Source: Acidimicrobiales bacterium
GTDB lineage: Bacteria; Actinomycetota; Acidimicrobiia; Acidimicrobiales; Aldehydirespiratoraceae
DNA length: 64,000 bases
Reading direction: 5' to 3'
NCBI GenBank assembly: GCA_965116965.1
Contig: OZ220743.1
Location: 3,958,628 to 4,022,627 of the forward strand
Below the pieces are notes generated by a model, which was given only the letters and a program-made list of their open reading frames with translations, was not told where the DNA came from and did not search any database. Shown here in pieces: positions 661 to 19,400 of this stretch (positions within the stretch are counted from its first letter, which is position 1; each line of letters begins with the position of its first letter). The translations under genes and the position numbers were made by a program.

Positions 661-746
661 ATTCCCTCCTAGGGACGATCCGGCGGTAGCCGGATGCTTC
701 TATTGGAGATCTGGGTTCGGTTCTGGAGCCTAGGCTCCTGCGGGCG

Positions 747-2419: not shown

Positions 2420-2518
2420 GTCTCTGTCCCCTTCGTAGCCAACGATGCTGACGGTTGCTGATCGCAGGGATGACCATACAGTACCGCCACCAGTCTCTGA
2501 CCAGACCGGCGAACCTCA

Positions 2519-3079
2519 ATGCGAGTCCTCCTGCTAGACGGCTACGACCCCTCAGACCCCGACCGCCTCGTCGTGGACGAGGCGGTGCAGGAGTTGGGCG
2601 CCGGGCGCCACGAACTGGACCTGCTGGTGGTGCACAGCTTCAACTCGGTGATGTCCGCGGCCGAGCGAGTCGCGTACCACAGCGACCAGCCGGTGATCTC
2701 CGACGATGTTCGGGACTCGGCCTCCAGGCTGCGGGCTGCGGAGGCTCTGCTGTTCTGCTACCCCACCGTGGCCTTCAACGTGCCGGCAACGATGAAGGGC
2801 TGGCTTGAGCGGGTTCTTGTGCCCGGCGTCGCCTTCGTGTTCGACGACAGGCGCCGGGTCAAGCCGGGCATGGAGAACATCCGCCGGATCGGCGCGATCA
2901 CCACCAGCCCGCATGGCCGGATGGCCCGGCTGCGGGGCCGGGACGCGGGCAAGCGCACGACGGCCCGCACGCTGCGGCTGAGCGCCCACAAGCGCTGCCG
3001 CACCACCTTCGTTTCCGTGCCCACTCCGGCTGACAACGAGGGCACGGCCAGGATCCGCCGGGCCCTCCGCCGCTGGTAA
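2519..3079 (+). CDS. Flavodoxin-like fold NAD(P)H (quinone) dehydrogenase family protein
   Basis: The 186-aa ORF starts MRVLLLDGYDP... and contains ...LLFCYPTVAFNVPATMKGWLERVL..., a pattern typical of the Flavodoxin_2/NQO-MdaB-type family. It is transcribed divergently from the ABC operon. Confidence 0.65.
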   Translation: MRVLLLDGYDPSDPDRLVVDEAVQELGAGRHELDLLVVHSFNSVMSAAERVAYHSDQPVISDDVRDSASRLRAAEALLFCYPTVAFNVPATMKGWLERVLVPGVAFVFDDRRRVKPGMENIRRIGAITTSPHGRMARLRGRDAGKRTTARTLRLSAHKRCRTTFVSVPTPADNEGTARIRRALRRW

Positions 3080-3202
3080 CGGCCGCCGACCCACCAGGCC
3101 GGGGGTGGCGACGGGTCCGGGCGGCCGACAATGGGGCGCAGCCCCGCCGGGCCGAAGGGAGCCCGGCGACAGGATCCGCCGGCCCGAAGGACCCGTCCGC
3201 GA

Positions 3203-4360
3203 TCAGGAGCTGGGCAGCAGGGGCAGTACTTCCTCGGCGATGCGGTGCAGATGCTCCTCGACCTGTTCGTAGGGGTCGCCGGGCATGGCCGGGAACAGCA
3301 GCAGGTTCTCCAGGCCGATCTGCTCGTCGTAGGCGTTGATGGTCTCGGCCACGTCCTCGGCCGTCCCGACCAGGTACATCTTCTGGTCGATGGACTGCTC
3401 CAGGGTGGGGATCAGCCCCGGCTTGGCCGGTTTGCCGTCGGGACCCATGTAGCCCTTGCTCCATCCGTAGGGGCCGAGGAACTTCCAGAACTCGTCGTGG
3501 CCGCCGCGCACCGACGCCACCGCCTCCTCATGGCTGTCGCCGACGCGGACGTTGAGCACCAGCAGGCGGTGCTCGCCCCGGTCCAGCTCACGGCCGTGGG
3601 TGGCTGCGTGGATCTCCGCGAACTTCTCCCACCGCTGCTTGACGAAGGAGTGGTGGTTGTTCCAGAACACGCCGCCCCAGCCGCAGCGGGGTACCTGCGC
3701 GAGGGTGGGGGGCGAGGTGATCGCCTGCCAGATCTCGTAGGGGTACAGCGGGCGGGGCACCAGCGACAGCTCGGTCACGAACCCGCCCCGGTCGGGGATC
3801 CCGGCCGGCGGGAAGTCATAGACGTCGCCGTGGAAGCTGAACGTGTCGTTGTCCAGCGCCAGACGGATCACCTCCATGGCCTCGTCGAACTGCCTGCGGT
3901 TCAACTCGTCGGCCGCGGCCTTGTCGGGATTGTCGAAGCTGCCGATCCTGGTGCCCAGCGTCTCAGCCTCACGCGGCACCGTTCCCCGGCCCACGCCCAG
4001 GATGCCCCGGCCGCCCGAGATGTTGTGCATCGTGGCGAAGTCCTCGGCCAGCCGCAGCGGATGCCACTGCGGCACGATGTTGAACGCCATCCCGATGCGG
4101 ATCTGCTCGGTGCGCTCGGCCAGGATCGTCCCCACCAGGATCCCGTTGGGTATGACTTCGTAGCCCTCGTGCTGGAAGTGGTGCTCGGTCAGCCAGAACG
4201 AGTCGAACCCCAACCGGTCGCACACCACCCCGGCGTCGATGATCTGCTCGGTGGCCCGCCAGATCTCCTTGGAGCTGTAGCGACGGTCGGTCGGAGCAGG
4301 CGGGCCCGCGCCTGCGTCCGGGAACTCGACCCCGCCGAACAGGAATACCCCGGTACGCAC
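3203..4360 (-). CDS. LLM-class (luciferase-like) flavin-dependent oxidoreductase
   Basis: The 385-aa ORF contains ...FDSFWLTEHHFQHEGYEVIPNG...IRIGMAFNIVPQWHPLRLAEDFATMHNISGGRGILGVGRG..., which is characteristic of luciferase-like monooxygenases. Confidence 0.85.
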   Translation of the reverse strand: MRTGVFLFGGVEFPDAGAGPPAPTDRRYSSKEIWRATEQIIDAGVVCDRLGFDSFWLTEHHFQHEGYEVIPNGILVGTILAERTEQIRIGMAFNIVPQWHPLRLAEDFATMHNISGGRGILGVGRGTVPREAETLGTRIGSFDNPDKAAADELNRRQFDEAMEVIRLALDNDTFSFHGDVYDFPPAGIPDRGGFVTELSLVPRPLYPYEIWQAITSPPTLAQVPRCGWGGVFWNNHHSFVKQRWEKFAEIHAATHGRELDRGEHRLLVLNVRVGDSHEEAVASVRGGHDEFWKFLGPYGWSKGYMGPDGKPAKPGLIPTLEQSIDQKMYLVGTAEDVAETINAYDEQIGLENLLLFPAMPGDPYEQVEEHLHRIAEEVLPLLPSS

Positions 4361-4381
4361 GCCGCCTACTGTAGAACCGGC

Positions 4382-4672
4382 TCAGCAGTCGCGGATCACT
4401 CGGAAGGCCCGCATCGTGGCCTCCCGGCGCCACTGGCCCATGGCCTCGTCGACGGCCCCGACCTCGGCGGGCGGCACGGCGTCCCACGCCTCCATCGACT
4501 CCCAGTGGATCACCGCGTGGACCCTGCCGGGGTCGTCGTCGGCGATCCACATCTCCTTGCCCGCGAAGCCGGGCCGGCTCTCCAGGTAGCGGCTCCAGTG
4601 GAGCTCCTCGACCGCCAGCCACTCGTCGCGCTCGTCGGGGTCCACCTCGAAGGTCAGGAACTCGATCACCAT
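4382..4672 (-). CDS. Small ABM-fold / TIGR03792-like protein
   Basis: The 96-aa ORF reads MVIEFLTFEVDPDERDEWL...PGFAGKEMWIADDDPGRVHAVIHWESMEAWDAVP. This resembles the small dimeric alpha-beta barrel (antibiotic-biosynthesis-monooxygenase-like) family as I remember it. It lies 21 bp downstream of the LLM gene. Confidence 0.5.
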   Translation of the reverse strand: MVIEFLTFEVDPDERDEWLAVEELHWSRYLESRPGFAGKEMWIADDDPGRVHAVIHWESMEAWDAVPPAEVGAVDEAMGQWRREATMRAFRVIRDC

Positions 4673-4883
4673 CGGTTTCAGACTAGAGGCCGGGCGGGAG
4701 CCGCAGCCCGGCTACAGCCTCCGAAGGCGTGGAGCGAGGCCGCGGCCCGAGCGGCCCGCGAGCGAAGCGGACAAGAGCGGGGAACTAGAGCGCGGCCGGC
4801 CGGAATCGATGTCGAAGGCCGCCCTCCAAGGGCCGGCACTTCATCAATTTCGGGCGAAGCGGGGCGCGGCGTAGGGTGAGAGG

Positions 4884-6230
4884 GTGACCGGAGCCGTCTG
4901 CGACCTGCGCAGCTACATGGCGGTCGCCGAGGCCGCCGGGATGCTCAACCGCATATCGCGCCCCGTGAGCCTCGAGCACGAGCTGGCCGATGTGGCCGCC
5001 GCGCTGGAGCGCTCCGGCGCGGGGCCGGCGCTGTTCGAGGCGCCCAAGGACTCGCCGTGGCCGATCTTCTCGGGCGCGGTCAGCAGCCGGCGCACCGCCG
5101 CGCTGGCCCTGGGCTGCGAGCCCGACGAGGTGGTGGACCGCATGGGCCGCGCCCTGGAGCCGGCCAACGGGGTGGCCGCCGCCCGGGTCGGCTCGGCAGC
5201 CTGGCACGACGACTGCCTCACCGGCGACGACGTGGACCTGGCCGCCATACCGGTACCCACGCACTCGCGGGGCGACGGCGGCGCCTTCATCACCGGCGCG
5301 GTGAGCGTGACCAAGGACCCGATCAGCGGGCGGGGGAACCTGTCGTACAACCGGATGCTGATGCTGGACCGCAACGTCCTGGGCTTCAACGTCAACGAGT
5401 GGCGCGACGTGGGCACGTTCATGCGCAGCCGGCCCGACCCCGGCGCGCCCTTCGACGTGGCCCTGGCCATCGGCCTCGACCCGGCGGTGATGATCGCGGC
5501 CGGGGTGCGCACGCCGGTCGACGAGCTGCTGATCGCGGGCGCCCTGCGGGGCCGGCCGGTGGAGGTGTGCCGGGGCCGCACCGTCGACGTCGACGTGCCC
5601 GCGCATGCCGAGGTGGTGATCGAGGGCCGGATCCGTCCCGACCAGCGGGCCGACGAGGGGCCGCTGGCCGAGTTCCACGGCTACCACGGCGAGATGTGGC
5701 CCAGCCCCACCGTGGAAGTGACGGCCATCTCCTGGCGCCACAGCCCCATCTACCAGACGATCATCCCGGGGTGGTACGAGCACGTGTTCATCGGCAACGT
5801 GCTGCCCCGCGAGCCCCTGCTGCGCCGCTTCGTGCGCCACATCGACCCCGGCGCCGATGTGTACATCCCGCCCTACGGCAACGGCTTCCTGGCCGTGATC
5901 CAGATCGACCGCGACAACCCGGGCACGCCCAAGAACCTGGCCATGGCGGCCATGGCGGCCCACATCAACATCCGCAACGTGATCGTGGTTGACCGCGACG
6001 TCGACGTCAGCCAGCCCTCCGAGCTGCACTGGGCCCTCACCAACCGGGTCCACTGGCTCGACGACGTGTTCACCACCGGCCACGCCCAGGGCCATGAGAT
6101 GGATCCCACCGCCGACAACCGGGGCGTCGGCACCAAGGTGGGCATCGACGCCACCTACAAGCGGGAGCGCCGCGAGTACGGCGAGCGGGTGGCCTACGCG
6201 CCGGTTGATCTTGGGAAGTACCTGTCATGA
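4884..6230 (+). CDS. UbiD-family (prenyl-FMN-dependent) decarboxylase
   Basis: The 448-aa ORF starts with GTG. Its N-terminus, DLRSYMAVAEAAGMLNRISRPVSLEHELADV, and its overall length match UbiD-like decarboxylases. It is followed directly by the ubiX partner gene. Confidence 0.8.
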   Translation: MTGAVCDLRSYMAVAEAAGMLNRISRPVSLEHELADVAAALERSGAGPALFEAPKDSPWPIFSGAVSSRRTAALALGCEPDEVVDRMGRALEPANGVAAARVGSAAWHDDCLTGDDVDLAAIPVPTHSRGDGGAFITGAVSVTKDPISGRGNLSYNRMLMLDRNVLGFNVNEWRDVGTFMRSRPDPGAPFDVALAIGLDPAVMIAAGVRTPVDELLIAGALRGRPVEVCRGRTVDVDVPAHAEVVIEGRIRPDQRADEGPLAEFHGYHGEMWPSPTVEVTAISWRHSPIYQTIIPGWYEHVFIGNVLPREPLLRRFVRHIDPGADVYIPPYGNGFLAVIQIDRDNPGTPKNLAMAAMAAHINIRNVIVVDRDVDVSQPSELHWALTNRVHWLDDVFTTGHAQGHEMDPTADNRGVGTKVGIDATYKRERREYGERVAYAPVDLGKYLS

Positions 6231-6276
6231 GCGTTGGGAGGCGGGCTCCCGCCCGCGCCCCGGAGAAGTACCTGTC

Positions 6277-6846
6277 ATGACGGGGCCGCGGCGGGTGGTG
6301 GTGGCCATCAGCGGAGCCACCGGCGTGGTGTACGGGATCCGGGCGCTGGAGCTGCTGCGCGAGGTCGAAGATGTGGAGACCCACCTGGTGATGACCGGCC
6401 CCGGTCGCCAGACGCTCGCCTACGAGACTGACCTGGCGCCGGCCGATGTGGACGCCCGGGCGGATGTGGTCCACGGCTCGCGTGACATCGCCGCCCCGAT
6501 CTCGTCGGGCTCCTACCCCACTGCGGGGATGATCATCGCCCCCTGCTCCATCAAGATGCTCTCCGCGGTGGCCAACTCCTACTGTGCCGACCTCGTGTCG
6601 CGGGCGGCCGACGTGACGCTCAAGGAGCGGCGGCCGCTGGTGCTGATGGTGCGCGAGACGCCGCTGCACCTGGGCCATCTGCGCCTGATGGTCCAGGCCG
6701 CGGAGATCGGTGCGGTGGTGTACCCGCCGGTTCCGGCCTTCTACACCCGGCCGGAGTCGATCGAGGACCTGGTCACCCACTCGGTGGTGCGGGCCCTCGA
6801 GCATCTGGGCGTCGAGGTCGGCGACGTCCCCCGCTGGGGCGAATAG
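6277..6846 (+). CDS. ubiX: UbiX flavin prenyltransferase
   Basis: This is an internal ATG (6277) of track ORF 5989..6846. The product reads MTGPRRVVVAISGATGVVYGIRALELL...GMIIAPCSIKMLSAVANSYCADLVSRAADVTLKERRPLVLMVRETPLH..., which is classic UbiX/Pad1. The upstream extension of the track ORF overlaps ubiD out of frame and is rejected. Confidence 0.9.
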   Translation: MTGPRRVVVAISGATGVVYGIRALELLREVEDVETHLVMTGPGRQTLAYETDLAPADVDARADVVHGSRDIAAPISSGSYPTAGMIIAPCSIKMLSAVANSYCADLVSRAADVTLKERRPLVLMVRETPLHLGHLRLMVQAAEIGAVVYPPVPAFYTRPESIEDLVTHSVVRALEHLGVEVGDVPRWGE

Positions 6847-6965
6847 CCGCGGCAGCGCAGCGCGTCCCCAGCGGCCTCATCAGGATACAAAGATATTTTC
6901 ATGCTATTAGGTTGTAGGACACGCTGTCGTCGCTACGCTCCCTGAGGGAGCTGAGAATCTCTGAG

Positions 6966-7394
6966 GTGAGCCCGATGACAACGACCGACATGAGCGACAT
7001 GACCTCAGAGCAGCCGGCTGCCGATCGTGCCGCCGCGCTGTTCGCGGACGCCCGGGTACTGCACAACGCAGCGCTGGCCCGCCTGGAGGCCGGCGACGTC
7101 AGGGATGCCGCCGAGAAGGCGTGGTGCGCCACCAGGCGCGCCACCGACGGCCTCATCGTGGCCCGCACCGGCGAGGAGCCCGCGAAGTCCCCAATCACGA
7201 CGCGGGAGATGCAACGCCTCGCCGCCGACGACCCGGGCATCGACCGCCTCTCGGATCGCTACCACGTCGTGAGGGACACCCTGCACGGCGACTGCTTCTA
7301 CCTCGGTCTCTGCGAGCCGCTCGACCGCACCGAGCGCCGCGTACGCGACACCGTCGACCACATCGGAGAAGCCGAGTCCCTCGCGGCCGGCTAG
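6966..7394 (+). CDS. Hypothetical helical protein, possibly HEPN/PaREP1-like
   Basis: The 142-aa ORF follows the only AT-rich stretch of the core region (6870-6960). The segments ...AAEKAWCATRRATDGLIVA... and ...LHGDCFYLG... resemble PaREP1/HEPN-type four-helix proteins. There is no canonical Rx4-6H motif, so the call is weak. Confidence 0.35.
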   Translation: MSPMTTTDMSDMTSEQPAADRAAALFADARVLHNAALARLEAGDVRDAAEKAWCATRRATDGLIVARTGEEPAKSPITTREMQRLAADDPGIDRLSDRYHVVRDTLHGDCFYLGLCEPLDRTERRVRDTVDHIGEAESLAAG

Positions 7395-7432
7395 AGGACG
7401 CTGGCCGCGGCCTGCTCGGTCTGGGCCGCGCG

Positions 7433-9049
7433 TCAGGCCAGGCTGCGAAGGACGGCGTTGGCGGTGTTGCGGCCGGATGACCCCCAGATTCCAGACCCCG
7501 GATAGGTACCCGCGCCCGACAGGAACAGTCCGGGCACCGGCGCCCGGTACCGGCTCAGCTCGCGGCGCCGACCGAACAGCGACGACAGTGGGGAGCCCGC
7601 GTACGACGGCGTGTATCCCCGGGCCAGGTAGAACTCGCGCTCGTAGCGGTCGGGGGTCATGGTCCGGTAGCGGTCCACCGACTCGAGGAATCCGGGCTGC
7701 AGCAGGCCCGACCACACCTTCAGCCACCGGGCCGGCTCGGGCGAGTCGGCCCAGCCGCCCTCTATGTCATAGGGGGTGAACAGCGCCTCCAGGCTGAGCA
7801 CGTGGAGTCCGTCGCCACTGCGCATCGTCGGGTCCAGCACCGACGGCACGTTGGCCATCATGGTGGGCCGCTCAGCCACCCGGCCCAGGCTCCGCAGCCG
7901 GTGGGCGTCGGCCAACTCAGCCGCGGTGGGTGAGATGACGACGTTCGACTGGGCCGGATCGCGTCCTTCGAACAGATCGAGCAGAGCCGAATCCTCCAGA
8001 GCCGGGTATCGAGGGAGGTCGGTGATGACGGCGTCGATCTTGGACTGGTAGCCGTCGGTTGGGGTCTGCGATCGGGCCCGAGCGACGAAGCGGCGAGCCC
8101 CGCCGGTGGGCTCGGCGAGCCACCGCGACGCCACCGAGGCCGGATCGACAGCGGTCACCACCGCGGCCGCAGTGACTTCGGCGCCGTCGGCCAAGCGCAC
8201 GCCCTGCACGCCCCGGCCGTCGCCGAGCAAACCGGTCACCGCCGTGCCGCATCTCAAGACGCCTCCGGCCGCGGTGAACGAGGCGGCCAGCGCGTCGGTG
8301 AGCGCGCCGCTGCCGCCCACCGGGCGGCCCGTCTTGACCATGTGGCGCATGGCATAGGACGCGCCGGCCAGACCGGTGCCGGGTCTGTCTCCTGGAGCGC
8401 CCCAGACTGTGGGGCCGTTGGAAATGGCCGGCATGACCAGGGCTTCGTCATCGAAATAGGACCTCAGCACGTCCAGCGCGCCGGCCCGGCTCCACTGCAG
8501 CAGCCGGGCTCCGCCGCGGGCTCGGCGGGCGGCCAGCCGTGCCAGCATCCGTGGCGTGGACGCCGGCCCGGTGCCCATCTCCAGGATGAGTTCGGCGACC
8601 GGTCTGGCGTCGGCCAGATATCGGCGGTAGGCGGTGGCTTGCGCGGGCCGGTGGCGCCCGATGGACTCGATGGTGCGCTCGCTGTCGTTGAAGAACAGCC
8701 ACGGCGGGCTGCCGTCGTAGCCCATGTAGACGGTGGTCGGGTCGGCTTCCAGGTATCGCAACCCGTGGGCGGCCAGGTCCAGGTCGTCCATGAAGGGCAT
8801 GGCCCGCACCAGGGTGTGGTCGCAGCTGCAGATGTTGAAGCGGGCGTCCAGGTCGCTGACCGTGGAGGCGCAGCCCCCCACTTCGTCGCGGGCCTCCACC
8901 AGCAGGGTGTCCACTCCGGCCCGGGCCAGGTAGGCCGCGCAGATGAGGCCGTTGTGGCCGCCGCCCACCACCACGACGTCGGCGTCGCCGACGGTTCCGG
9001 TGCGGCTGGACCCGGCGCCGACCTCCGGAGCGACACCGGCGGCGGTCAT
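7433..9049 (-). CDS. NAD(P)/FAD-dependent oxidoreductase (phytoene desaturase/CrtI-like family)
   Basis: The start is taken at the internal ATG at 9049, giving MTAAGV...DADVVVVGGGHNGLICAAYLARAGVDTLLVEARDEVGGC, a Rossmann GxGxxG dinucleotide-binding N-terminus. This ATG overlaps the upstream yqeC stop as ATGA. The longer track ORF (to 9391) would overlap yqeC. Confidence 0.8.
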   Translation of the reverse strand: MTAAGVAPEVGAGSSRTGTVGDADVVVVGGGHNGLICAAYLARAGVDTLLVEARDEVGGCASTVSDLDARFNICSCDHTLVRAMPFMDDLDLAAHGLRYLEADPTTVYMGYDGSPPWLFFNDSERTIESIGRHRPAQATAYRRYLADARPVAELILEMGTGPASTPRMLARLAARRARGGARLLQWSRAGALDVLRSYFDDEALVMPAISNGPTVWGAPGDRPGTGLAGASYAMRHMVKTGRPVGGSGALTDALAASFTAAGGVLRCGTAVTGLLGDGRGVQGVRLADGAEVTAAAVVTAVDPASVASRWLAEPTGGARRFVARARSQTPTDGYQSKIDAVITDLPRYPALEDSALLDLFEGRDPAQSNVVISPTAAELADAHRLRSLGRVAERPTMMANVPSVLDPTMRSGDGLHVLSLEALFTPYDIEGGWADSPEPARWLKVWSGLLQPGFLESVDRYRTMTPDRYEREFYLARGYTPSYAGSPLSSLFGRRRELSRYRAPVPGLFLSGAGTYPGSGIWGSSGRNTANAVLRSLA

Positions 9050-9777
9050 GGCGGTGTCGCTGCCGGGTCCCCGTCCGGGCGGACCACCACCGACCCGGTC
9101 TGCCGCTGCCCGAGTTCGGCGACCAGGTCCTGCACCTGCGGGTCGTCGGGGTCGGCCCCGGCGACCGCCACCGTGAACCGGGCGGACTCCGGGACGTTCT
9201 TCATCATGCCCACCGGGCTGGTCAGCGCCTGTGCGGCCCTCGCCGGAGTGAGCCGCTCGTACGGCGCGCACCCCGCGGCCGCGGCCACCCGCAGCGGTCG
9301 GTGGACCCGGTCGGCGATCACGTAGCCGAGCGCGTCGGCGCCGATGCAGGCCACCACGTGGGTGGAGGTGGAGGGGATGGGCGGCTCCCACGGCGCGGGA
9401 GCGGTGAAGGGACGGCGACGGGCTCCATCGGCCTCAACAACTATGTGATCGGCGGCCCCGTTGGCAAACCAGCGGTCTACTTCGGTGGGCGCGAACCCGA
9501 GGGCCTTGCGCTCGTCGGTCGTCCTCCACACCAGCACCGCGTCGTCATCGTCGAGGGCGGTGGCCAGTTCGTCGTCCGTGGGCCCGATCAGGCACGGGAA
9601 CCCGCCGGTGCGGTCACACCCCATTCGGGTGGTGGTGGTCAGCAGGGTTCGGGCCGGCAGGTTCCGGCCCAGCGCGAACAGCAGGGTCGTCTTGCCGCCG
9701 CCGCCGACCAGAGCCACCAGCGACCGGCGTCCCAGCCCGAGGGCAACGGCTACGCCGGCAGGGTCGGTGACGCGCAC
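9046..9777 (-). CDS. yqeC: YqeC-like selenium-dependent hydroxylase accessory protein
   Basis: The 243-aa ORF contains ...SLVALVGGGGKTTLLFALGRNLPARTLLTTTTRM... and ...IVVEADGARRRPFTAPAPWEPPIP..., which match the YqeC (TIGR03172-type) pattern from memory. Confidence 0.7.
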   Translation of the reverse strand: MRVTDPAGVAVALGLGRRSLVALVGGGGKTTLLFALGRNLPARTLLTTTTRMGCDRTGGFPCLIGPTDDELATALDDDDAVLVWRTTDERKALGFAPTEVDRWFANGAADHIVVEADGARRRPFTAPAPWEPPIPSTSTHVVACIGADALGYVIADRVHRPLRVAAAAGCAPYERLTPARAAQALTSPVGMMKNVPESARFTVAVAGADPDDPQVQDLVAELGQRQTGSVVVRPDGDPAATPP

Positions 9778-9792
9778 GGCTCCTTCGCCGGG

Positions 9793-9918
9793 TCAGGTCT
9801 CCCTGATCTTGCGGGCGAGCACGACGATCACAGCCACGAGGGCGCCCAGGATTATGAGCCGCTTGAGGTTCTTCACCGCGCGAAGCGTAGTGGTCGCGCG
9901 CGTGACCGCGGCGGGCAT
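9793..9918 (-). CDS. Possible small single-pass membrane protein (41 aa)
   Basis: This is an internal ATG of track ORF 9793..10056. The product is MPAAVTRATTTLRAVKNLKRLIILGALVAVIVVLARKIRET, with one hydrophobic helix. It ends 16 bp upstream of the yqeC start. The longer version would run antisense through the tRNA and is rejected. Confidence 0.3.
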   Translation of the reverse strand: MPAAVTRATTTLRAVKNLKRLIILGALVAVIVVLARKIRET

Positions 9919-9968
9919 AATCTGGGCGACGGCGAGGCAGGGCCTCAAGGACCGATACGCTGCCTCCC

Positions 9969-10064
9969 GGAGGTGTCTGAGCGCCTGGTGGGCTCCCCCG
10001 CCTTCAAAGCGGGTGGGACGGGCGATCCCCGTCCGGCGGGTTCGATTCCCGTCCACCTCCGCCA
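9969..10064 (+). tRNA. selC: tRNA-Sec (anticodon UCA), encoded CCA end
   Basis: The gene is 96 nt. The 5' GGAGGTG pairs with CACCTCC, followed by G-CCA. A CCCGC/GCGGG stem carries the loop CTTCAAA, giving anticodon TCA. There is a long extra arm (GGACGGG-CGAT-CCCGTCC) and a T arm (GCGGG-TTCGATT-CCCGT). The layout and length are the same as E. coli selC. Confidence 0.85.
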
Positions 10065-10096
10065 GAACTTATTCCAAAAAAGGCTTTTGACCTGCA

Positions 10097-10142
10097 TATT
10101 TCAAGAATTCTAAATAGTCAGTTATTATTTCAAGTATTCTAA
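10097..10142. repeat. Two 17-bp direct repeats (TATTTCAAGAATTCTAA / TATTTCAAGTATTCTAA) in the AT-rich stretch just 3' of selC
   Basis: The copies sit at 10097-10113 and 10126-10142, differ at one position and are spaced 29 bp start to start. They lie inside the most AT-rich roughly 130 bp of the window. Confidence 0.6.
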
Positions 10143-10386
10143 TTGATCCGCTTAGGATCGGAGCCAACCTGTAACACGGGTACCGGGACTTGACACCGGA
10201 TTGCTCAGGATCATCAAGCGGTTGGAGCGCATCCTCGCCGGGGAGCCGGGCGTGCAGCTGATGGATTAAGTCGTTGCGGCACCGTTGATCATCGGTTGAC
10301 CGGGGTCGTTGTTGTTGACGGAGCTCTGAAGTCAGCCACCAATTCACTTCACCCATACGACAACGTCGCGTCGGGCCGCTCCCGTC

Positions 10387-13300
10387 GTGAGCTTCGGCTC
10401 GAATAGCGTGCTTGTGGTGCCAGAGCTCTCCACACTCGAATCAACAGTTCTGGGCGCCGTCATCTCAGCTGTTGTGGGCGCACTCATCCCCCCACTAAGG
10501 CGATGGGTTGTAGGCATTGTGCGCCTGTGTGTGGACCGCAGCCGGGGTCTCTACCGGAGAGCGCGGTCTCGCGGACACGATGCTCCGGTGGCGCGCCCCA
10601 GTCTCCGGGAGCCCATCGGTGAAGCGGCTCGTCCCCAGCAGTCGATGATTGCGCAGACGGCGTATCGCTATGAGCGGCTGTGGAGCATGTCGCGCGTGTT
10701 GGATCTGTTGGACGGAAAGGTTCGCTGGATTCGATGGGAGCCGCCAGGCGCGAGCGGGGTGGCAGTTGACTGGGTTCTCGAAGCGGATGGCGACGTTTGG
10801 GTGGAGGAGGTCAAGTACCGGTCTCGCGGGTGGACGATCAGCGAACTCGATGAGCGACGTGTGCTCGCTGTTGCGAAAGGCCAGATCGATCAAGGGCGAC
10901 GTTTCCGCTTACTGACGGCCTCAGGTGCTGCGAAGCTTGAGACGCTGGCGGATTGTGCCAGGAGGTCTGAGTCCTTCGCCGACTACGAAGCGCTCTTGAC
11001 CGGAGGGCTTAGGGCTGACCTTGAGAGGGTTGCCGCTTGCTGGAGTGTCTCACCGGAGAGCGCTTGGTCGGTTCTGCAAGACATAGAGGTTGAGCACGAG
11101 CCTGTCCGCTCGTTAGAGCGGTTCATTGAGATGAGGTTGCGGATTCGGTATGCGGACAGAGCTGAGAGTGTCTGGGAAGCGCTGGAGCGCTTTTACATGG
11201 CACACATCCACGAGCACCTAACGGCCCAGCAGGTTCTGGAACATCTCGAGTCCGAGGGTCTTCGCCAACTGCCGAGAACTGGCGATACGGGCGTCAGCAG
11301 ACGGCTGCGCCAGTCCCGGCGACGCCATCAGGAGCATGTCAAGCAGTTCGAGCCGCCGGGAGGTCTAGCGCCAACAGGCGACGTGGACGCAGTGGTGGGG
11401 ATGCTGCGTGACCCCGACGGCAAGCAGATTGTCGTTGTTGAAGGTCGGGCGGGATCGGGCAAGTCGACCGTGGCCGCCGCGGCTGCAGCCGCGCTAGCAG
11501 AGAGCGGCTGGCACGTCGCTGCTGTCCGGATGGATGTCGCCGAGACGTTGTTGACGTCGGATGCTCTGGGCCGGGCGATGGAACTGACCGAATCGCCGTC
11601 TGTGCTGCTGGCGGTTGTTTCCGACGGGCAGCCGGCGCTTCTTGTTGTGGACCAACTCGACGCGGTCAGTCTCCACAGCGGCCGAGTTCCTGACAGCTTT
11701 GACGCCGTCAACGAGGTCCTGTTGGAGATCGAACACTACCCCAACCTCAAGGTGCTGCTTGCTTGTCGTACCGTCGACCTTGAGCGCGACCAACGGCTCG
11801 GTTCATTGCGGACCGGCGAGCGGGTCGGTCGCCACGCTGTGGGTGAACTCGACATCGAGACTGTCAGGACACATTTGGCTGCATGTGGCATCGACGCGCC
11901 GGGCTCGAGCCCGACGATGGAGTTGCTACGCATTCCTCTGCACTTGTCGCTGTTCATCCGGCTTTCCGATGAGGGCCGTGCCCGCCCGTATGTGACCCTG
12001 CAGCAGCTCTATGACCGCTACACCCAGGAGGCGCGCTCCAGAGTCGCTCGTAACGTCGGGAGCCTGGATTGGGATCAGACCGCGGGTGCCATTGTTGACT
12101 ACATGAGCCGTGAGGGGATGCTGGCGGCGCCGGCTGCAGTGCTCTATGGGGCATCTCCACAACAGGCCGAGGCTCTCGTGTCTGAGTCGGTGATCGTGCG
12201 CCACGGCGCGGTCGTCACGTTCTTTCATGAGTCGTACTTCGACTACCTCTTCGCGGTGTCGTTCGTCGGCGCAGGCCGTGACTTGCGGGCTTTTCTGGTT
12301 GACTCCGACCAAGGCCTGTTCCGGCGTGCCCAGACGCGCCAGGTGCTTGAGCATCTCGCCGCGACTGACCGGAAGCGGTTCATATCGGTCGTGGTCGAGT
12401 TGCTCGAAGGCGAAGACATTCGGTTCCATCTCAAGGTTGTCGTCGTAGGCGTGCTTCGCCAGATCGAACCTGTGCCCGGGCACTGGGCGGCGTTGGAGCA
12501 TCTGGCGTGGAGCGGCTCACCGCTCGGGGTGAGGCTGCTCAGGCTGCTGTGCAATCCGGGATGGTTCGATGCAGCGGACAGCCTTGGTCGGTGGGACGCA
12601 TGGCTTGAGGATCCGCAGCGGGCCGAGACCGCCCACGACGAACTCGCGATCGTCGCGAAGCATCGTCCCGCCCGGGTCGCGGAACTCATCCGCCCCCGCT
12701 TGGAGGACTCGGAGCAGTGGCGCCACTGCCTGCAGAGGATCATGTGGTTGTCGCTGTGCAGCGAACTTGTCGACCTGATCGCCGACGCGATCACGATGGG
12801 ACTCTTCGACGACGCTGACCGCCCGACGGGGGGCCTTGGCTTCTGGATGAACCTGCACCGGTTCAAGGACGACGATCCTGCTGGCGCGGCCCGGCTCATC
12901 GGGGTGTTCCTTGACCGCGGCCTAGAACGCGCCAAGCTCGCCGGCAGCGATGATCCGTTCAAGTCCGGACACCTGCGTTCGGACTCTCAATCCGAGTCAG
13001 AAATCGCCGACGTGGCTCGCAAAGCCCCAGCGGAGTTCATCAGGCACGTGCTGCCGTTCGTCATCGAAGTAGCGGGAGCCGACCTGCACTATCCCGACGG
13101 GGGACTACCTGTCGGGCGATGGCATAGCCGCTTGTCGTTGGTACACGGCGTGGACAACGTCGTGTTCGCCGCCACCGAGAAGGCTCTGCTGGCGCTGGCG
13201 GAACAAGACCCGGCGCAATGCGCCGACGCTCTGCCACCGCTGCGCTCCGCTGAGATCTTCGAGTTGCGGTACCTGGCCTGCCGAGCCCTGGCGAACATGG

Positions 13301-15009
13301 GTGACGCTGATGATGCGGTCAGCTGGCTAGTGTCGGACGAGCGCAATCTCATGCTGGGATCGGGCGGCGTCTCGAAGTCAGCGGCACGCGAGCTGATCGA
13401 GCAATGCTCGCCCGGATGCCCTTCCGGCCTGTTCGACGCGCTGGAGGCCGCGATACTCGACCACTGGCCGATCTGGGAGACAGACGCATCTCGCGGCCAT
13501 TCGCAATACGAACTGCTCGCAGCGCTGGACTCCACGAGACTGTCCCCAACAGCACGGCGAAGGCTCCACGAACTGGAGAACCGGTTCCCGGACTGGCCAC
13601 CGCAACCAGCGGAGCCGGCCGTTTGGTCCGGGGCTGTGGGGTCACCGATCGACGGCGACGAGTCCGTGAACATGTCCGACGACGACTGGATCGCCGCCCT
13701 GCAGCGATACATCGACGAAGAACCGCGGTGGGACGGCGACCGCGTCGTCGGCGGCGCACACCAGCTAGCCAGCATGCTCGGCGAACAAGCCAAGGGCGAC
13801 CCTGCGCGCTTCTCGCGAATCGCGCTCCGCTTCGACGCAGACATTCCCGATGCCGCGATGAACGCAGTCATCCGCAGCGTCGAGAGCCACATCGGGGTCG
13901 AGGCCCTGACCGACCTTTGCGAGCACGCCTACAGCGTCTACGGCTCAAGGGTCGGGCGGGCCGTGTGCAGCGCGATCGGTCGTGCCGATGCTGTGAACCC
14001 GCGCCTGGTGGCACTACTCACCGCCTACGCCAGCGACGCCGACCCCGAGCGCGAGGAAGCCCGAACCGAAGCGTTCACTGGCGACTATCTCTACGGCGGC
14101 GACTTCCTCACAGCGGGGTTGAACTCGACGCGGGGACAAGCAGCCCTCTCAGCCGCCGCGCTGCTGTTCAGATCAGCCGACCACCTCAACGCTCTGATGC
14201 CCACAGTGGACGCCCTCACGCAAGACGACATAGTCGCGGTGCGAGTCTGCGCCGCCGAAGCGGTCACCGCCTTGTTGAACCATGCAGCCGCACAGGCGCT
14301 GGATCTGGCTGAGCGCATGCTTAACGCCGACATCGAAGTCCTCGATGCGCAAACCAGCGAGAGACTCCTTACTCATGCTGTGCTGCGCGACCCCGACCGA
14401 TTCGCCGCAACACTGGCCGAAGCCATCGCAGGACCAGAAGACATTGCGGTGCGGGGCGGGCGGATCTGGGCGGTGACGCGCTGGAGCGGACGACTACCCG
14501 CCGGACTCGACACCGACGTGTGTGCCCTGCCGGCAGCGGCCCGCCGTGGTGCCGTCGAGGCATTCGCGTCCAACGTTGCGGACAGCCTCGAGGACCTGCG
14601 CCGCGTGTTCGACGACGACGATCCCGAGGTTCAGGCGAACCTCGGGATAGCGATTCACAGACTCGACAATGTCTCGGCATCCGAGATGGAAGGCCTGATC
14701 AGTGCTCTCACAACGAGCAGTGCATTCCCCCGACACATGGACAGCCTCATGTACGCGCTTGAGCAGCTGCCTGCCGAGATGCCGGCCAACGCCGTCACCG
14801 CATGCGAGCGCGTCGTCGAGATCACCGGAGCTGACCTCGTAGACCCATCCAAGGCCAGCGCGCTCACCGGTCTCCACATGGTCACCGTGGTGCTGCGCCT
14901 ATACCGACAGGGAGACCAAGAAACCAGAGTCCGCTGCCTGAACATCATCGACCGGCTCGCAGAGTTCAACCTGTACGACCTAGAACGGGCGCTCGACGAC
15001 GAGAGATGA
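10387..15009 (+). CDS. Giant nuclease / NACHT-like P-loop NTPase / HEAT-like repeat protein (Avs/bNACHT-like)
   Basis: The ORF is 1540 aa from a GTG start; an alternative ATG at 10645 gives MIAQTAYRYERLW.... It has a PD-(D/E)xK-like module (...VDWVLEADGDVWVEEVKYR), a Walker A motif (VVVEGRAGSGKST) and a NACHT-style Walker B motif (ALLVVDQLDAV). About 950 aa of helical repeats follow. Confidence 0.75.
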   Translation: MSFGSNSVLVVPELSTLESTVLGAVISAVVGALIPPLRRWVVGIVRLCVDRSRGLYRRARSRGHDAPVARPSLREPIGEAARPQQSMIAQTAYRYERLWSMSRVLDLLDGKVRWIRWEPPGASGVAVDWVLEADGDVWVEEVKYRSRGWTISELDERRVLAVAKGQIDQGRRFRLLTASGAAKLETLADCARRSESFADYEALLTGGLRADLERVAACWSVSPESAWSVLQDIEVEHEPVRSLERFIEMRLRIRYADRAESVWEALERFYMAHIHEHLTAQQVLEHLESEGLRQLPRTGDTGVSRRLRQSRRRHQEHVKQFEPPGGLAPTGDVDAVVGMLRDPDGKQIVVVEGRAGSGKSTVAAAAAAALAESGWHVAAVRMDVAETLLTSDALGRAMELTESPSVLLAVVSDGQPALLVVDQLDAVSLHSGRVPDSFDAVNEVLLEIEHYPNLKVLLACRTVDLERDQRLGSLRTGERVGRHAVGELDIETVRTHLAACGIDAPGSSPTMELLRIPLHLSLFIRLSDEGRARPYVTLQQLYDRYTQEARSRVARNVGSLDWDQTAGAIVDYMSREGMLAAPAAVLYGASPQQAEALVSESVIVRHGAVVTFFHESYFDYLFAVSFVGAGRDLRAFLVDSDQGLFRRAQTRQVLEHLAATDRKRFISVVVELLEGEDIRFHLKVVVVGVLRQIEPVPGHWAALEHLAWSGSPLGVRLLRLLCNPGWFDAADSLGRWDAWLEDPQRAETAHDELAIVAKHRPARVAELIRPRLEDSEQWRHCLQRIMWLSLCSELVDLIADAITMGLFDDADRPTGGLGFWMNLHRFKDDDPAGAARLIGVFLDRGLERAKLAGSDDPFKSGHLRSDSQSESEIADVARKAPAEFIRHVLPFVIEVAGADLHYPDGGLPVGRWHSRLSLVHGVDNVVFAATEKALLALAEQDPAQCADALPPLRSAEIFELRYLACRALANMGDADDAVSWLVSDERNLMLGSGGVSKSAARELIEQCSPGCPSGLFDALEAAILDHWPIWETDASRGHSQYELLAALDSTRLSPTARRRLHELENRFPDWPPQPAEPAVWSGAVGSPIDGDESVNMSDDDWIAALQRYIDEEPRWDGDRVVGGAHQLASMLGEQAKGDPARFSRIALRFDADIPDAAMNAVIRSVESHIGVEALTDLCEHAYSVYGSRVGRAVCSAIGRADAVNPRLVALLTAYASDADPEREEARTEAFTGDYLYGGDFLTAGLNSTRGQAALSAAALLFRSADHLNALMPTVDALTQDDIVAVRVCAAEAVTALLNHAAAQALDLAERMLNADIEVLDAQTSERLLTHAVLRDPDRFAATLAEAIAGPEDIAVRGGRIWAVTRWSGRLPAGLDTDVCALPAAARRGAVEAFASNVADSLEDLRRVFDDDDPEVQANLGIAIHRLDNVSASEMEGLISALTTSSAFPRHMDSLMYALEQLPAEMPANAVTACERVVEITGADLVDPSKASALTGLHMVTVVLRLYRQGDQETRVRCLNIIDRLAEFNLYDLERALDDER

Positions 15010-15591
15010 GGCCGAAGACACCTGCCTCGTCCCGCGAAAAGGGATCCGCCCGAGCCGTGGTCCGTACGCACCTGGTGTGCCCTGGGGTCTCACGCGGTGA
15101 GCTTGGTTGATTCCGGGCATCGGTGATGGCGTGACGGAGTTCGAGCGTCGCCGGGTGTTGCATGGAGTTCAGGTGGGTGCGATGTGTTGTGCCCAGGTTT
15201 CCATCAGTGGCCTGCGGCGCTCGCGCATGTCGGATCTGGCTTAGGCGGCTTCGGTGCGGTCTCTGACGGCGTGGCCGAGTGCTGTCTCGGCGAAGTCCCG
15301 GGGAACTGCGGTGTCGCTGCCGGGGGCACTCTCTTCGATCAAAAAATAGCGTTTGAACTGGTCTTATACTTCATTCTCAGAGTTGGTTACCACTCAAGCT
15401 ATTCACAATGCGGGCCGCGGGTTGGCACGCTGACGGTGCTTGTTCGCTCATCTGAGCCGCGCGGCGAAACTCCGAGGGCGCATGAAGAGAATCGACGCTA
15501 CGGAGCTTGTGAAGCTAACCCCGGCCTGGCAGCAGCGCTGACGGGCTGGGAGCCGCTAGAAGTGATCAGGCACACACCGGGGGCTAGAGCG

Positions 15592-16427: not shown

Positions 16428-19400
16428 GTGACGATGGCAAGTCTGTGGCCAACGCATCGGGGCTACGCATACCAGGATCTGATGGTTGCGTGCCGGCTTG
16501 TTGACATGGTGTTGGGCACCTTGATCGAGGCACGTGTGGACGACCGTGTGATGCCTGACGACTGCTTTGACGATCTGAAGACTGTGGAAGTCAGCGGAAC
16601 TCGCGAGCACATTCAGATCAAGCACACCCAACATGGTGAGCGCTCCTTGTCATTGGCGACCTTTACGAGCGATTCGCGTCGGTTGCGGCTCGACAGGGTC
16701 ATCGGGGCGGTTCTCGCCAACCGCGTGGTGACGGGATTCGATGCGAATGTTCAGCTGTTCCGGATAGTCGTTCGCGATGCGGCTCCAGCTGACGCTCGTC
16801 TCCGGTCTGTGCTTGTGTCAGCCCCGGTTGATCCTGGACCGTTCGTGCCCGGTGCGGGGACGACCCGCTTAGCCTTTGACTCTGCGGCGTTGTGGGCCCA
16901 GGTACATCAGCAGCCCGCAGCCGACACGCGGTCCGGTGAATTCCCCTTCGCCTTTGTGGGGAATCAGCTAACGGATCTGTCGCGATCAGATCTCGACTGG
17001 GTTTGTGACCGAGTTGTGGTCGAGGTCGCGGCCCCGCCCAGTAGTGGCGACCTGCTTGAGCCGGCTGCAGCTGAGCGGCTGTTGCTGAGGCGTGTTCGAG
17101 ACGAGCTTGGAGCCGGAGTGTTCCCGAATGTGGACCGGTCTCCAGTCGATGTCGCAGCGGCAGTGATCGCAACGGCCCGTGCGGCGCGAGAGGGCAGGGT
17201 CGACGCAACAGCTACAGAGATCCTGCGGTGGGCACGGTTGCGCAGCGATTACGGAGCAGTGTCGCGAGCTCATCCTGTAGACGAGTCGGTGAAAATCTTC
17301 AGGCAGGCTGCGGTGCAGCTATTCGTGGACTCTGCCGCTGATCGAGCACAGGCCGGAGGGGCGCTGATCGCTGTAGGACCGCCGGGCCAGGGCAAGTCCT
17401 GGTTGTGTCACCAGGTATTGAAGGAGTTCGAGAAGTGGGGTTGGTTGACTGCGGAGCACTACTGCTATCTCGGCGACGCTGACCAGGAACGCGCCCAGCG
17501 GGTACTCGCCGAAAGGGTGTTCGGCAGCCTCATCGCCCGGCTCGCGGAGGCGGACGCCAGGCTGGTCACCGAGAATCGACCGCTGCTAGCGGCCGATGAA
17601 GACAGCCTCGCGGCATGCGTAGCAAGATCCATCGAGTTGGAGCCTGAGCGTCGTGTCGCTCTGGTAGTCGACGGTTTGGACCATGTCAGCCGGGTCCGTG
17701 CCAGCGATGCTCGGGAATGCGATCCCTCCCAGAGTCTCGCCGAAGCGCTCGCGTCGCTGGAACTGCCAGCGGGCAGCGTCCTCATCGTCTTGAGTCAACC
17801 AGGCTCCCACTTGTCGCCGCTTGAGCGCTCTGGTGCCGCAACCCTGAAGGTTCCCCGTCTTGATGAGATGGAACTCTGCAACCTCGTCGTGAGGCACGGC
17901 CTGATGCCAGATGATGCATCGCACGGAACTGAAGGGACTTGGTTGCTTTCTGGAGAGATGGAGATTGCCGAATTCCTCGATGCTTTATCGACTCGGTCCG
18001 ACGGCAACGCCCTGTACGCCACCTACTTGTGCCGCGAGGTATTGAGACACGATCAAGCTCAAGCAGGCGCGGCGGCGATTGTGATGGGGCTGCCAGCATT
18101 CGACGGAACGCTCAAGAGCTACTACGAGCACCTGCGGTCTGCTCTGACCCCCGGAGGGGCGTGGGTCGCGGATCTGATAGCCCTGATCGACTTCTCAATT
18201 ACGCGCAGCGAGCTGAAAGCGATACGGCCTGACACGGAGCACCACATAGACGACGCGCTCGCGGTTCTTGCTCCTGTTCTCTGCGAACATGCGATGCAGG
18301 GCGGCGTCCGCATATACCACGAGTCCTTCGCAAGGTACTGGTGCGAACCCTTCCAAGCGAACCCATCTGTGCGCGCCGCGCTCCTTGAACACATGACGGA
18401 CTGGTTGACGAGCCTGGGCTTCTTCGACGATCAGCGTGCCTACTGCCACCTGATTCCGCTGTTGGCTGATTCGGGGCGTGACAGCGAAGTGGTGGAGATG
18501 ATCGGCATCGACTTTGTAGTTCGGTCGATCGCGGCGGGATTCGCAGCCTTCGAGATCACCAAGAACCTGGCTCGCGCCATCCGGTGTGCCTCGCGAGTCG
18601 GCGACTGGGCCAAGGTTGCTCGCTTCGTGGAACTGGTTCGTGCCGCCGAGTGCTACCAGCGAGAACGCTACGACTCCGTCCTCGTCGATTTTGCTGATGT
18701 CCCCGTCGGGCTTCTGGGCTCAGAAGCGGTTGCGGAGCGTCTGCTTCATGACGATCGCACAGTCATGCCCGTTCGGGCCGGTCTTCAGATGTGTGCTGCT
18801 GTTGATGGGTTGGGGGGCGTCGCTCCCTGGGAGCACTATCTGGACCGGTTTGATCGCGAGCCCGACTTCGACGGCGTCGTGTACGACGGAGACTCCGATC
18901 GAGCTGTCGCGCTGGCCTACCTGCGCGGATGGCTTCGCCTGGAAGCGGTCACCGGACTCCGCGGACTGCGTCGAGACACCTCCCCCACAACTGCACCAGC
19001 AGGAGTTGACCTAGCCGTCCGGCAAGACCCCGGCGAACCGCCCGATCATCCCGCGGCAGCAACAGATCAGACCGACTGGCAGGAGGTGGCCGCCTACATC
19101 GGCGAGAATCAGCTTGACGCATATGACGTAATGGAGGTCATCCTCGACACGTTCGGCTCAGATGGCGTGCGGCAGATCACCCCCCTGCTGGAACAGCCCG
19201 CGACCGTGTTCCTGAGCGTGGCGCGACACGTCGCGGATCGCCACTTGGAGGCAGAACTCGGAACGGCACGATCCTGGGCGCTCGAAGCTGTGCAGCACGG
19301 AACTGCCGCAGGCGCTCTGCACGTCGTGCTTTCACTCGGCGTCGATGTGAACGAAGTAGTCGGCTCCGGTCCGGAGGAGGCACGAGACACCCTGGTGAAC

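Follow-up and report, generated by a model that had tools for sequence, protein, structure and literature searches.

In sponge-associated Acidimicrobiia ('Ca. Aldehydirespirator'), selC very probably serves as the attachment site for integrative islands mobilised by a P4-type tyrosine integrase. The DNA following selC had been a puzzle in the window, i.e., the 64,000-nucleotide stretch analysed here, and this is now resolved: it belongs to a standard integrase/att-bounded island whose defining parts lie outside the window. On this reading the attP of the element would carry the last 15 nt of selC, CGTCCACCTCCGCCA, and recombination within this 15-nt core would insert the element while leaving selC intact. 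An AT-rich P' arm, here called the module, would then stand directly after the CCA to form attL, and the integrase, a P arm of ~166 nt and a second core would form attR at the far end. The anatomy and its conservation across contigs can be read directly from the DNA; that the integrase recombines these sites and binds their arms is what we infer from it.

selC as a core/accessory boundary

The tRNA-Sec gene matches Rfam RF01852 over the full model (68.3 bits, model positions 1-91 of 91). For comparison we used 41 species representatives of the same sponge-associated lineage. Gene order to the left of selC is common to ~35/41 of these relatives, at 80-97% amino-acid identity, and the yqeC-selC pairing is kept in 37/41. 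The genes on this side encode an ABC transporter, a luciferase-like protein, UbiD/UbiX, an FAD oxidoreductase and YqeC, and their domain annotation agrees with the housekeeping-type metabolism that the earlier note had seen there. On the right almost nothing is shared: between the 9.7 kb that follow selC in the relatives and positions 10-64 kb of the window, only a 375-bp and a 40-bp patch are alike. There is a sharp core/accessory boundary at selC, as the earlier note had proposed.

That note had also suggested composition and gene order in relatives as checks, with the lack of a compositional difference, or the same content as conserved core, counting against an island. GC is 0.697 left of selC vs 0.630 over 10-48 kb, and GC3 is 0.90 in core genes vs 0.74 in island genes (Mann-Whitney p = 6e-6); by GC3, the composition of the island is foreign relative to the core genes. 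The relatives lack the island content at the selC locus, and their sigma70-NadE-GlnII block follows selC either directly or after unrelated inserts. Empty sites, in which sigma70 stands 58-900 nt after selC, were found in 11 species representatives, and the inserts in others extend from 1.4 to >9.7 kb. Genes recurring next to selC in the relatives were considered as integrases and rejected, since they encode RCC1-repeat proteins, a sensor kinase, IS fragments and a macro-domain protein. The core block of the relatives is absent from the window; on the window contig it resumes farther on, and features beyond the window, reached by walking the 216-kb source contig past the window end, are given in window-equivalent positions (Table 1).

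Table 1. Features of the selC locus, in window coordinates or, beyond the window, in window-equivalent coordinates.
Feature	Position	Strand	Evidence or remark
selC, tRNA-Sec, anticodon TCA, intact	9969-10064	+	ARAGORN; Rfam RF01852
attL core CGTCCACCTCCGCCA, last 15 nt of selC including CCA	10050-10064	+	15/15 identical to attR core
AT-rich module 1, read as element-side (P') arm of attL	10065-10148	+	GC 0.26
STAND/NACHT-type NTPase, 1540 aa, cargo of selC-proximal relic	10387-15009	+	Pfam nSTAND_NTPase5 1.6e-8
Probable integrase C-terminal relic, in-frame stop	15178-15309	-	tblastn 41% over 44 aa, E = 2e-4
AT-rich module 2, direct orientation	15337-15412	+	nhmmer E = 3.8e-5, 23.4 bits
Large-element cargo	15413-64000, on to ~76.3 kb beyond window		Pfam, PADLOC, TRF
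Second STAND NTPase	16428-22964		
PLD-like pair	23594-28074		
HTH transposase fragment	28271-29032		
ThiF/E1-like	29071-30609		
SMC/Lamassu-like ATPase	32953-34785		
RDD protein			Large-element cargo, listed between SMC/Lamassu-like ATPase and GajB-like UvrD
GajB-like UvrD	36027-37964		
YgjP and type I R-M hsdRSM	38025-45664		
VWA/MoxR/LRV genes	48060-52533		
MurA pseudogene fragments	53593-54620		
Tandem-repeat tract	53-62 kb		TRF
Intact P4-type tyrosine integrase, 386 aa	76358-77518, beyond window	-	Pfam
attR core CGTCCACCTCCGCCA	77685-77699, beyond window		Perfect copy of selC 3' end
Clearer integrase C-terminal relic	78924-79161, beyond window		E = 4e-28
sigma70-NadE-GlnII-HD block	87.7-92.7 kb, beyond window		Resumes at 87684

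Attachment cores, integrase and AT-rich module

The integrase and the second att copy lie 12-14 kb past the window end. The integrase carries Arm-DNA-bind_3 (PF13356, 1.8e-12), Phage_int_M (PF22022, 6.3e-21) and Phage_integrase (PF00589, 4.2e-17), with all three matches above the Pfam gathering cut-offs, and the catalytic R, K, H-x-x-R, H and Y can be seen by eye in TGCRSGE, SRTKTGK, HGSRATLR, LGH and AKSY. It stands at the end of the element far from the tRNA and reads away from the attR core, which sits 166 nt upstream of its start. Over 92.7 kb of the contig the exact 15-mer has just two copies, one at the selC 3' end and one upstream of the integrase, and a 16-mer with at most one mismatch was reached in 2/300 shuffles in a chance test of the core repeat. 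From the positions of the two cores, the recombination unit of the window contig would be 67.6 kb. selC itself is the predicted attB, the chromosomal target of the island family.

The earlier note had seen neither a tyrosine integrase by the tRNA nor a second att copy, and within the window this is borne out: the ORFs scanned there include no intact integrase, and the last 26 nt of the tRNA have no second match with up to 3 mismatches. The search it had advised, for a further copy of the last 20-50 nt, likewise gave nothing in the window with the 26-mer, because the segment of identity is the last 15 nt only. In no relative do the 9.7 kb downstream of selC contain a copy of its final 20 or 26 nt, even when 4 or 6 mismatches are allowed, and a second 15-nt core was found in none of the 41 species representatives over the same distance. 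A 13-mer at 54275, picked up in a k-mer scan as a potential second att, is without extension and was taken as chance. The practical lesson is that gene-order comparison together with a contig walk found a 15-nt core that a 20-50-nt search would have missed. The earlier note had left two options, an island that is old and fixed or one whose integrase and attR lie beyond 64 kb. The second is correct, and the first also holds in part, in that the array contains decayed relics that have no integrase, a probable one at 15.2 kb and a clear one at 78.9 kb.

A stronger form of the first option is that the whole segment is a fixed fossil, its integrase and repeats intact by chance or through recent arrival and its 67.6 kb no longer mobile. 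We regard this as rather improbable. It would fit the signs of age in the element (MurA pseudogene fragments, remnants of IS, relics inside it and long tandem repeats) and the fact that neither an excisionase nor transfer genes were found. Beside the integrase, Pfam recognised no excisionase (recombination directionality factor) and no small ORF is shared; the small ORFs near it, 103 aa in L046 and 63 aa in L050, have no Pfam match and are mutually unrelated. Such factors are common near integrases, yet they are no defining requirement of islands of this sort. Against a fossil, the integrase gene encodes a full-length protein in which no catalytic motif is missing, the two cores agree at 15/15 positions, and the P arm is strongly conserved relative to that of a minimal, 4.1-kb element. 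In addition, integrases at least 90% identical occur as ~20 sequences on many contigs with differing cargo, a spread that, at the level of sequence, implies recent activity of the family.

The locus might instead be an integrase-independent hotspot, i.e., a permissive gap between convergent selC and sigma70 in which foreign DNA comes and goes through illegitimate recombination, or through homologous recombination between the conserved flanks, with the integrase as one passenger among others. Several features of the relatives are in keeping with such a process. The insert cargo differs in almost every species representative, and the short inserts of L005, L011, L020, L023, L029 and L035 lack an integrase or second core, those of L005, L011 and L029 having the module. 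The inserts of L001 and L002 are at different positions relative to another intergenic module, and the DNA to the right of attR, over 10 kb on the window contig and over 3-9 kb in L049-L057, is likewise variable and contains no att site of its own. As an account of the islands themselves the hotspot is nonetheless unlikely, because it leaves the att architecture unexplained. In 10/10 contexts with the region visible (the window contig and L049-L057, their integrases all of one cluster with at least 90% identity), a perfect core stands at a fixed 166-168 nt upstream of the integrase, and all 10 are placed between the sigma70 block and variable cargo. DNA homology of the window contig to the independent contigs L053 and L057 breaks off precisely with the final base of the core, 77699; in L049-L052 the two cores enclose an element of 4.1 kb at yqeC-selC; and the full module is confined to occupied sites. 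In view of the L005, L011 and L029 inserts and those of L001 and L002, integrase-independent turnover also operates at the locus, and such a process probably contributes to its decay and turnover alongside site-specific integration.

The earlier note had pointed to the stretch directly after the CCA as the most AT-rich of the window, and positions 10068-10147 are indeed its lowest-GC 80 nt (0.26, vs 0.36 for the next lowest). The two 17-bp direct repeats it had seen there are TATTTCAAGAATTCTAA (10097-10113) and TATTTCAAGTATTCTAA (10126-10142), 29 nt apart and identical at 16/17 positions, a pair not matched in any shuffle of the module (0/200). This pair is peculiar to the window; the view that modules in general carry internal direct repeats found no support elsewhere and was set aside. 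Behind selC, 12 species representatives have a homologous module, and 12/12 of these carry inserts, whereas 0/11 empty-site genomes have one (Fisher p = 0.003). The second half of module 1, GTCAGTTATTATTTCAAGTAT, shares an identical stretch of 21 nt with the attL arm that the intact 4.1-kb element has in L049-L052. A CAGTTA(Y)(Y)A motif, a candidate arm-type binding site of the integrase, is common to the P arm and this second half; the strict form AGTTAYCAC is too rare for statistics.

That the module is instead a host element, be it a selC 3' trailer or terminator, the promoter of the first island gene or a small RNA, is very unlikely: its position directly after the CCA, a TTGACC-like hexamer, and the occurrence of its first half behind the attR core and, in L002, L004, L006, L021 and L025, genomes without the full module, immediately behind selC would suit such a role, but it is missing from 11/11 empty-site genomes, all of which have selC, its second half is that of the arm of an intact element with cognate integrase, a second copy lies 5.3 kb away beside an integrase relic, Rfam finds no family besides tRNA-Sec, and a promoter is rejected since the gene that follows often has the opposite orientation (L009, L012-L015). 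Since the first half also occurs at attR and in genomes without the full module, it may be ancestral host sequence (B').

Tandem accretion, cargo and exchange

Only one spot in the window is more AT-rich than the one that holds module 2, and the module is 28 nt from the integrase relic at 15178-15309. This relic is in the orientation of the intact integrase and covers its residues 343-385, with the motif RRPLMETWAQH; the match is weak, and it probably marks the right end of the selC-proximal element. The earlier note had overlooked both module 2 and this C-terminus match. Beyond attR there is a half-module and the clearer relic, a C-terminal fragment cut off beside an IS. With module 2 and the integrase relics, the locus looks like a tandem array of ~3 elements, one of them intact.

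We propose that the locus was built by repeated integration into selC, the order of events being deduced from the layout. The newer element, nearest selC, would comprise module 1, the STAND NTPase gene and an integrase reduced to its C-terminal relic. Next would come an older large element, with module 2 as its P' arm, cargo of ~61 kb that is mostly for defence, and the integrase that is still intact, followed beyond attR by a still older relic, i.e., the half-module and integrase fragment beside the IS. In L005, the window's 23.5-kb sequence stands directly after that genome's own module, an arrangement that would be as expected if newer DNA inserts next to selC. No tRNA core precedes module 2, so accretion at this point needs an assumed deletion of ~1.2 kb. 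The 35 nt before module 2 were considered as a tRNA 3'-end remnant on the basis of a pairwise alignment and dismissed, as the alignment to an extended profile starts no earlier than 7 nt past the CCA.

The cargo bears out the defence-like genes that the earlier note had placed right of selC: STAND NTPases, type I R-M, a GajB-like UvrD, an SMC/Lamassu-like protein and an E1-like ThiF. The first NTPase also has a weaker NACHT match (Pfam) and a weak PADLOC match to PDC-M54A. Window positions 58.8-64 kb are collinear with the integrase-linked contig L045 at 72-89% identity. The plasmid-like genes of the earlier note did not hold up, being reduced to the HTH transposase fragment, an XRE-type HTH and iteron-like tandem repeats; Rep, Par and Tra domains did not appear. 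In the element of the window contig, none of the ORFs scanned with Pfam and PHROGs points to conjugation, a phage or replication: they have no domain of FtsK-like TraB, type IV secretion or a replication initiator, and no match to capsid, tail or terminase in either collection, so that the element does not class as a prophage; a PHROGs scan of the unannotated island ORFs gave no matches. A Tn7-like transposon was rejected, with no Tns-like domains and no inverted copy of the module profile in 92.7 kb.

These results define the att core, arm sequences and integrase of a selC-specific island family that had not been described before and whose hosts are uncultured, sponge-associated Acidimicrobiia. 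Much of the exchange of defence systems and eukaryote-like repeat proteins among these symbionts appears to run through this family. A broader and more speculative reading, which we put forward only tentatively, is that cargo is exchanged at the selC-sigma70 gap across the whole lineage, and that a single conserved integrase family of unusual layout (integrase far from the tRNA, 15-nt core, AT-rich P' arm) would move very diverse cargo between symbiont genomes there, namely anti-phage systems, eukaryote-like RCC1/fn3 surface proteins and transporters. Because the elements are without recognisable conjugation, phage or replication genes, they would on this broader reading be minimal 'integrase plus att' islands relying on some helper or transfer route within an uncultured community of symbionts.

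Comparison with known systems

P4-family (CP4-57/P4-like) islands are found at enterobacterial tRNA genes, including selC of E. coli/Shigella (LEE, SHI-2, LAA; PMC6174562, PMC7545054) and pheV (PMC11537424). The islands described here share with them the Arm-DNA-bind_3, Phage_int_M and Phage_integrase architecture, the tRNA 3' end, and selC itself, as target, the regeneration of the tRNA on integration, and short direct repeats of the tRNA 3' end as flanks. Large mosaic cargo with GC below that of the host, and tandem, decayed copies, are likewise common to both. In enterobacterial islands the integrase gene is usually directly downstream of the tRNA, whereas here it is far from it, and the core here is only 15 nt. 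The host differs, being an uncultured actinobacterial sponge symbiont, as does the cargo, which here consists of defence systems, transporters and RCC1/fn3 repeat proteins and there of virulence genes.

The array also resembles the tandem accretion and cis-mobilisable elements (CIMEs) of ICESt1-related elements and streptococcal IMEs (PMC5704250), in its successive site-specific integrations at the same att, its same-orientation arrays in which the integrase is gone from older or newer members, and in that one intact integrase and the outer att sites could still move the composite. Unlike in that system, no conjugative partner was identified here, and the selC-proximal element (A) is no true CIME with both att sites because the inner core between it and the large element (B) would have been deleted. 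With AICEs (pSAM2, SLP1) the element shares an actinobacterial host, a tyrosine integrase acting at a tRNA 3' end and an integrase gene by the att site at one end. However, Rep, FtsK-like Tra, Nudix and Xis were not detected in the element of the window contig, and its AICE membership is not supported; the related element L045 has a DnaB/AAA_25 helicase beside the integrase.

As in defence islands and hotspots, Avs-like STAND NTPases, type I R-M, a GajB-like helicase, a Lamassu-like ATPase, an E1-like protein and AbiE are gathered at one variable locus whose cargo differs between close relatives. Since its recombinase and att sites are identifiable, the selC locus is no anonymous hotspot. The island is of a known kind, a tRNA-targeting integrase island with defence cargo, and what is new is this member.

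The boundary at selC

The earlier note placed an abrupt core/accessory boundary at selC, the tRNA-Sec gene, and comparison with relatives bears this out. To the left lie genes for an ABC transporter, a flavodoxin-like protein, a luciferase-like monooxygenase, UbiD/UbiX, an FAD oxidoreductase and YqeC. With YqeC as the anchor, 41 species-representative loci were compared, all from Acidimicrobiia and mostly from metagenome-assembled 'Ca. Aldehydirespirator' genomes, many of them complete chromosomes. The yqeC-selC pairing occurs in 37 of these 41 relatives, and the left-flank gene order is kept, at 80–97% amino-acid identity, in about 35. Conversely, DNA and protein comparison of the relatives' 9.7 kb past selC with window 10–64 kb found nothing in common except two patches, one of 375 bp in the relative L005 (window 23489-23863) and one of 40 bp. 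Composition differs across selC as well: GC is 0.697 over 1-9968 versus 0.630 over 10–48 kb, and GC3 is 0.90 in core genes versus 0.74 in island genes (p = 6e-6).

ORF clustering identified a conserved block past selC in the relatives, comprising a sigma-70 gene convergent with selC, a small ORF, NadE, a GlnII-type glutamine synthetase and an HD protein. The block begins 58–900 nt past selC in 11 genomes, which we read as empty sites; in the remaining relatives, selC and the block are separated by unrelated DNA measuring from 1.4 to more than 9.7 kb. It is absent from the window, and the insert therefore extends beyond 64 kb.

Side observations were made around the anchor genes. The longest FAD oxidoreductase ORF (7433-9391, minus strand, 652 aa) overlaps yqeC (9046-9777, minus strand) by about 345 nt; probably its true start lies downstream and the overlap is an ORF-calling artefact, because the product called in the related contigs L049-L051 has 539 aa. 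An intergenic element of about 50 nt upstream of ubiD (4732-4781) recurs at 86–94% identity in the variable regions past selC of L002, L003, L005 and L023; it could be a REP- or MITE-like small dispersed repeat. MAG 277c_9 has two yqeC loci (L007 and L019), at neither of which ARAGORN called a tRNA-Sec; weak matches of the selC-plus-module profile where selC would be expected (35.6 and 49.9 bits) suggest degenerate selC copies, or an assembly or binning duplication.

Features of the selC locus (positions beyond 64 kb are window-equivalent, on the same source contig)
Feature	Position	Strand	Details
tRNA-Sec (selC), anticodon TCA	9969-10064	+	ARAGORN, sole tRNA in window; Rfam 68.3 bits, full model
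AT-rich module 1	10065-10148	+	
Integrase C-terminus match	28 nt left of module 2	as intact integrase	44 residues, in-frame stop; weak, E = 2e-4
AT-rich module 2	15337-15412	+	profile match, E = 4e-5
Adjoining short tandem arrays	53060-53416		CCCCACCATCGGGCAGCAT, 19 nt x 5.9 copies, 100% identical; GGCGGGTATACGCAACCGCTC, 21 nt x 7.8 copies
Long tandem arrays	56674-58940; 61560-61924		49 nt x 8.8; 46 nt x 22; 18 nt x 15.3 (100% identical); 17 nt x 18
AbiEi/AbiEii pair, 882-aa RCC1/fn3 protein, other accessory genes	64–76 kb		
Intact integrase, 386 aa	76358-77518	-	Arm-DNA-bind_3, Phage_int_M, Phage_integrase
attR core	77685-77699		perfect repeat of the 15 nt at the selC 3' end; 166 nt upstream of integrase start
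Third integrase relic	78924-79161, right of attR		residues 308-386, frameshifted; 75–78% identical, E = 4e-28
sigma70-c6-NadE-GlnII-HD block	87684 onward		contig's own copy

Integrase, attachment sites and the AT-rich module

As the earlier note had reported, neither an integrase nor a second att copy is visible in the window: its 26-mer from the tRNA has no second copy there, and the window ORFs scanned include no intact integrase. It left two alternatives, an island old and fixed, or an integrase and attR beyond 64 kb. The source, a 216-kb ENA contig holding the window in reverse orientation, was walked rightwards via called genes and cluster-member ids, and both the integrase, of P4 type, and an attR core were found there, which supports the second alternative. 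The 15-mer core occurs only twice in 92.7 kb of contig; the two copies bound a segment and therefore define a predicted recombination unit of 67.6 kb, which sits within a 77.6-kb variable interval.

The integrase cluster has 20 members at at least 90% identity. A perfect core lies 166–168 nt upstream of the integrase in all ten contexts with a visible upstream region (the window contig and the integrase-linked loci L049-L057), and integrase plus core always have the sigma70 block on one side and variable cargo on the other. In four of these loci (L049-L052), yqeC-selC is the site of a minimal element of 4.1 kb, ordered core, full AT-rich module, OpuAC-like gene, 63-aa ORF, integrase, P arm, core and half-module; the P arm is strongly conserved. 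DNA homology of the window contig to L053 or L057 ends exactly at 77699, the final base of the core.

The 80 nt past the CCA of selC (10068-10147) are the GC minimum of the window, at 26% versus 36% for the next stretch of that length. The two 17-bp direct repeats noted there, TATTTCAAGAATTCTAA and TATTTCAAGTATTCTAA, are present and identical at 16 of 17 positions; they are spaced 29 nt apart, and their match level was reached by 0 of 200 shuffles of the module. With an 80-nt profile, the module was located immediately past selC in 12 species representatives, each of which carries an insert, and in 0 of 11 empty-site genomes (p = 0.003). Over 21 nt, the second half of module 1 is identical to the minimal element's attL arm. 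Both in the window contig and in L049-L052, the first half also recurs after the attR core, and it therefore resembles ancestral selC-downstream sequence (B') or an older element's arm. From these sequence comparisons, we conclude that the module is the putative element-side (P') arm of attL. The 17-mer duplication is specific to this window, its second copy (10126-10142) falling within the conserved second half, and the 17-mers may be arm-type integrase sites.

The closest relatives, L001-L003, share another intergenic module within the first 60–615 nt past selC, in which an AT-rich stretch leads into a GC-rich hairpin (CCCCGCC...GGCGGG). The insert follows this module in L001 and a 380-nt insert precedes it in L002; the selC core is therefore not the only insertion point at the locus.

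Cargo and probable tandem accretion

Cargo right of selC includes two giant STAND NTPases, a PLD-like pair, a transposase HTH fragment, YgjP with a type I R-M system, VWA/MoxR/LRV genes, MurA pseudogene fragments and a tandem-repeat tract. The stretch 29071-37964 encodes a ThiF/E1-like protein (PADLOC E1-E2), a sigma70_r2-like ORF, an ORF without domain match, an SMC/Lamassu-like, SMC-type ATPase (PADLOC mad3/LmuB), an RDD membrane protein and a GajB-like UvrD helicase; it is a possible multi-gene defence cluster, and as a whole matches no single known defence system. Within the island, a broken pseudogene lies at 53593-54620 (minus strand): its two ORF fragments, 115 aa and 161 aa long, correspond to distinct parts of the EPSP-synthase/MurA fold (PF00275). 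The short arrays, perfect or near-perfect and just downstream of an XRE-type HTH ORF (52436-53077), look like iterons or operator arrays; no Rep protein to go with them was found. The long arrays form a tract of very high GC content (as much as 78%), open in several frames, where a low-complexity ORF of 759 aa is called in the source assembly; the stretch 58.8–64 kb, overlapping this tract, is collinear with L045, an integrase-linked contig. Large RCC1-repeat/fn3 (and SLH-like) surface proteins recur as hotspot cargo across several genomes: past selC in L004, L009 and L011, at 68.6–71.2 kb window-equivalent, in L045 (5467-8307) and in L057 (19742-21161). RCC1/fn3 proteins are eukaryote-like repeat proteins of a type often linked to sponge symbiosis.

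The three integrase copies all share one orientation, and the third adjoins a DDE transposase. No core stands ahead of module 2; a deletion would have taken it together with the integrase N-terminus and P arm. Newer DNA would have been inserted next to selC, which fits the arrangement in L005, where sequence from window 23.5 kb directly follows that locus's own module. Site-specific accretion followed by decay is a known pattern (reviewed in PMC5704250), which the selC locus matches; the locus is probably a composite tandem array. Some relatives carry inserts without an integrase or at other positions, and therefore integrase-independent turnover and decay also shape the locus. Neither an excisionase nor any gene for conjugation, phage functions or replication was recognised.

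Judged from its sequence, the feature is a typical tRNA-targeting tyrosine-integrase island with defence-rich cargo, of a kind that has not been described in this host group. It is distinctive in the position of the integrase at the tRNA-distal end, in its very short 15-nt core, and in that one integrase family serves widely diverse cargo in sponge symbionts.
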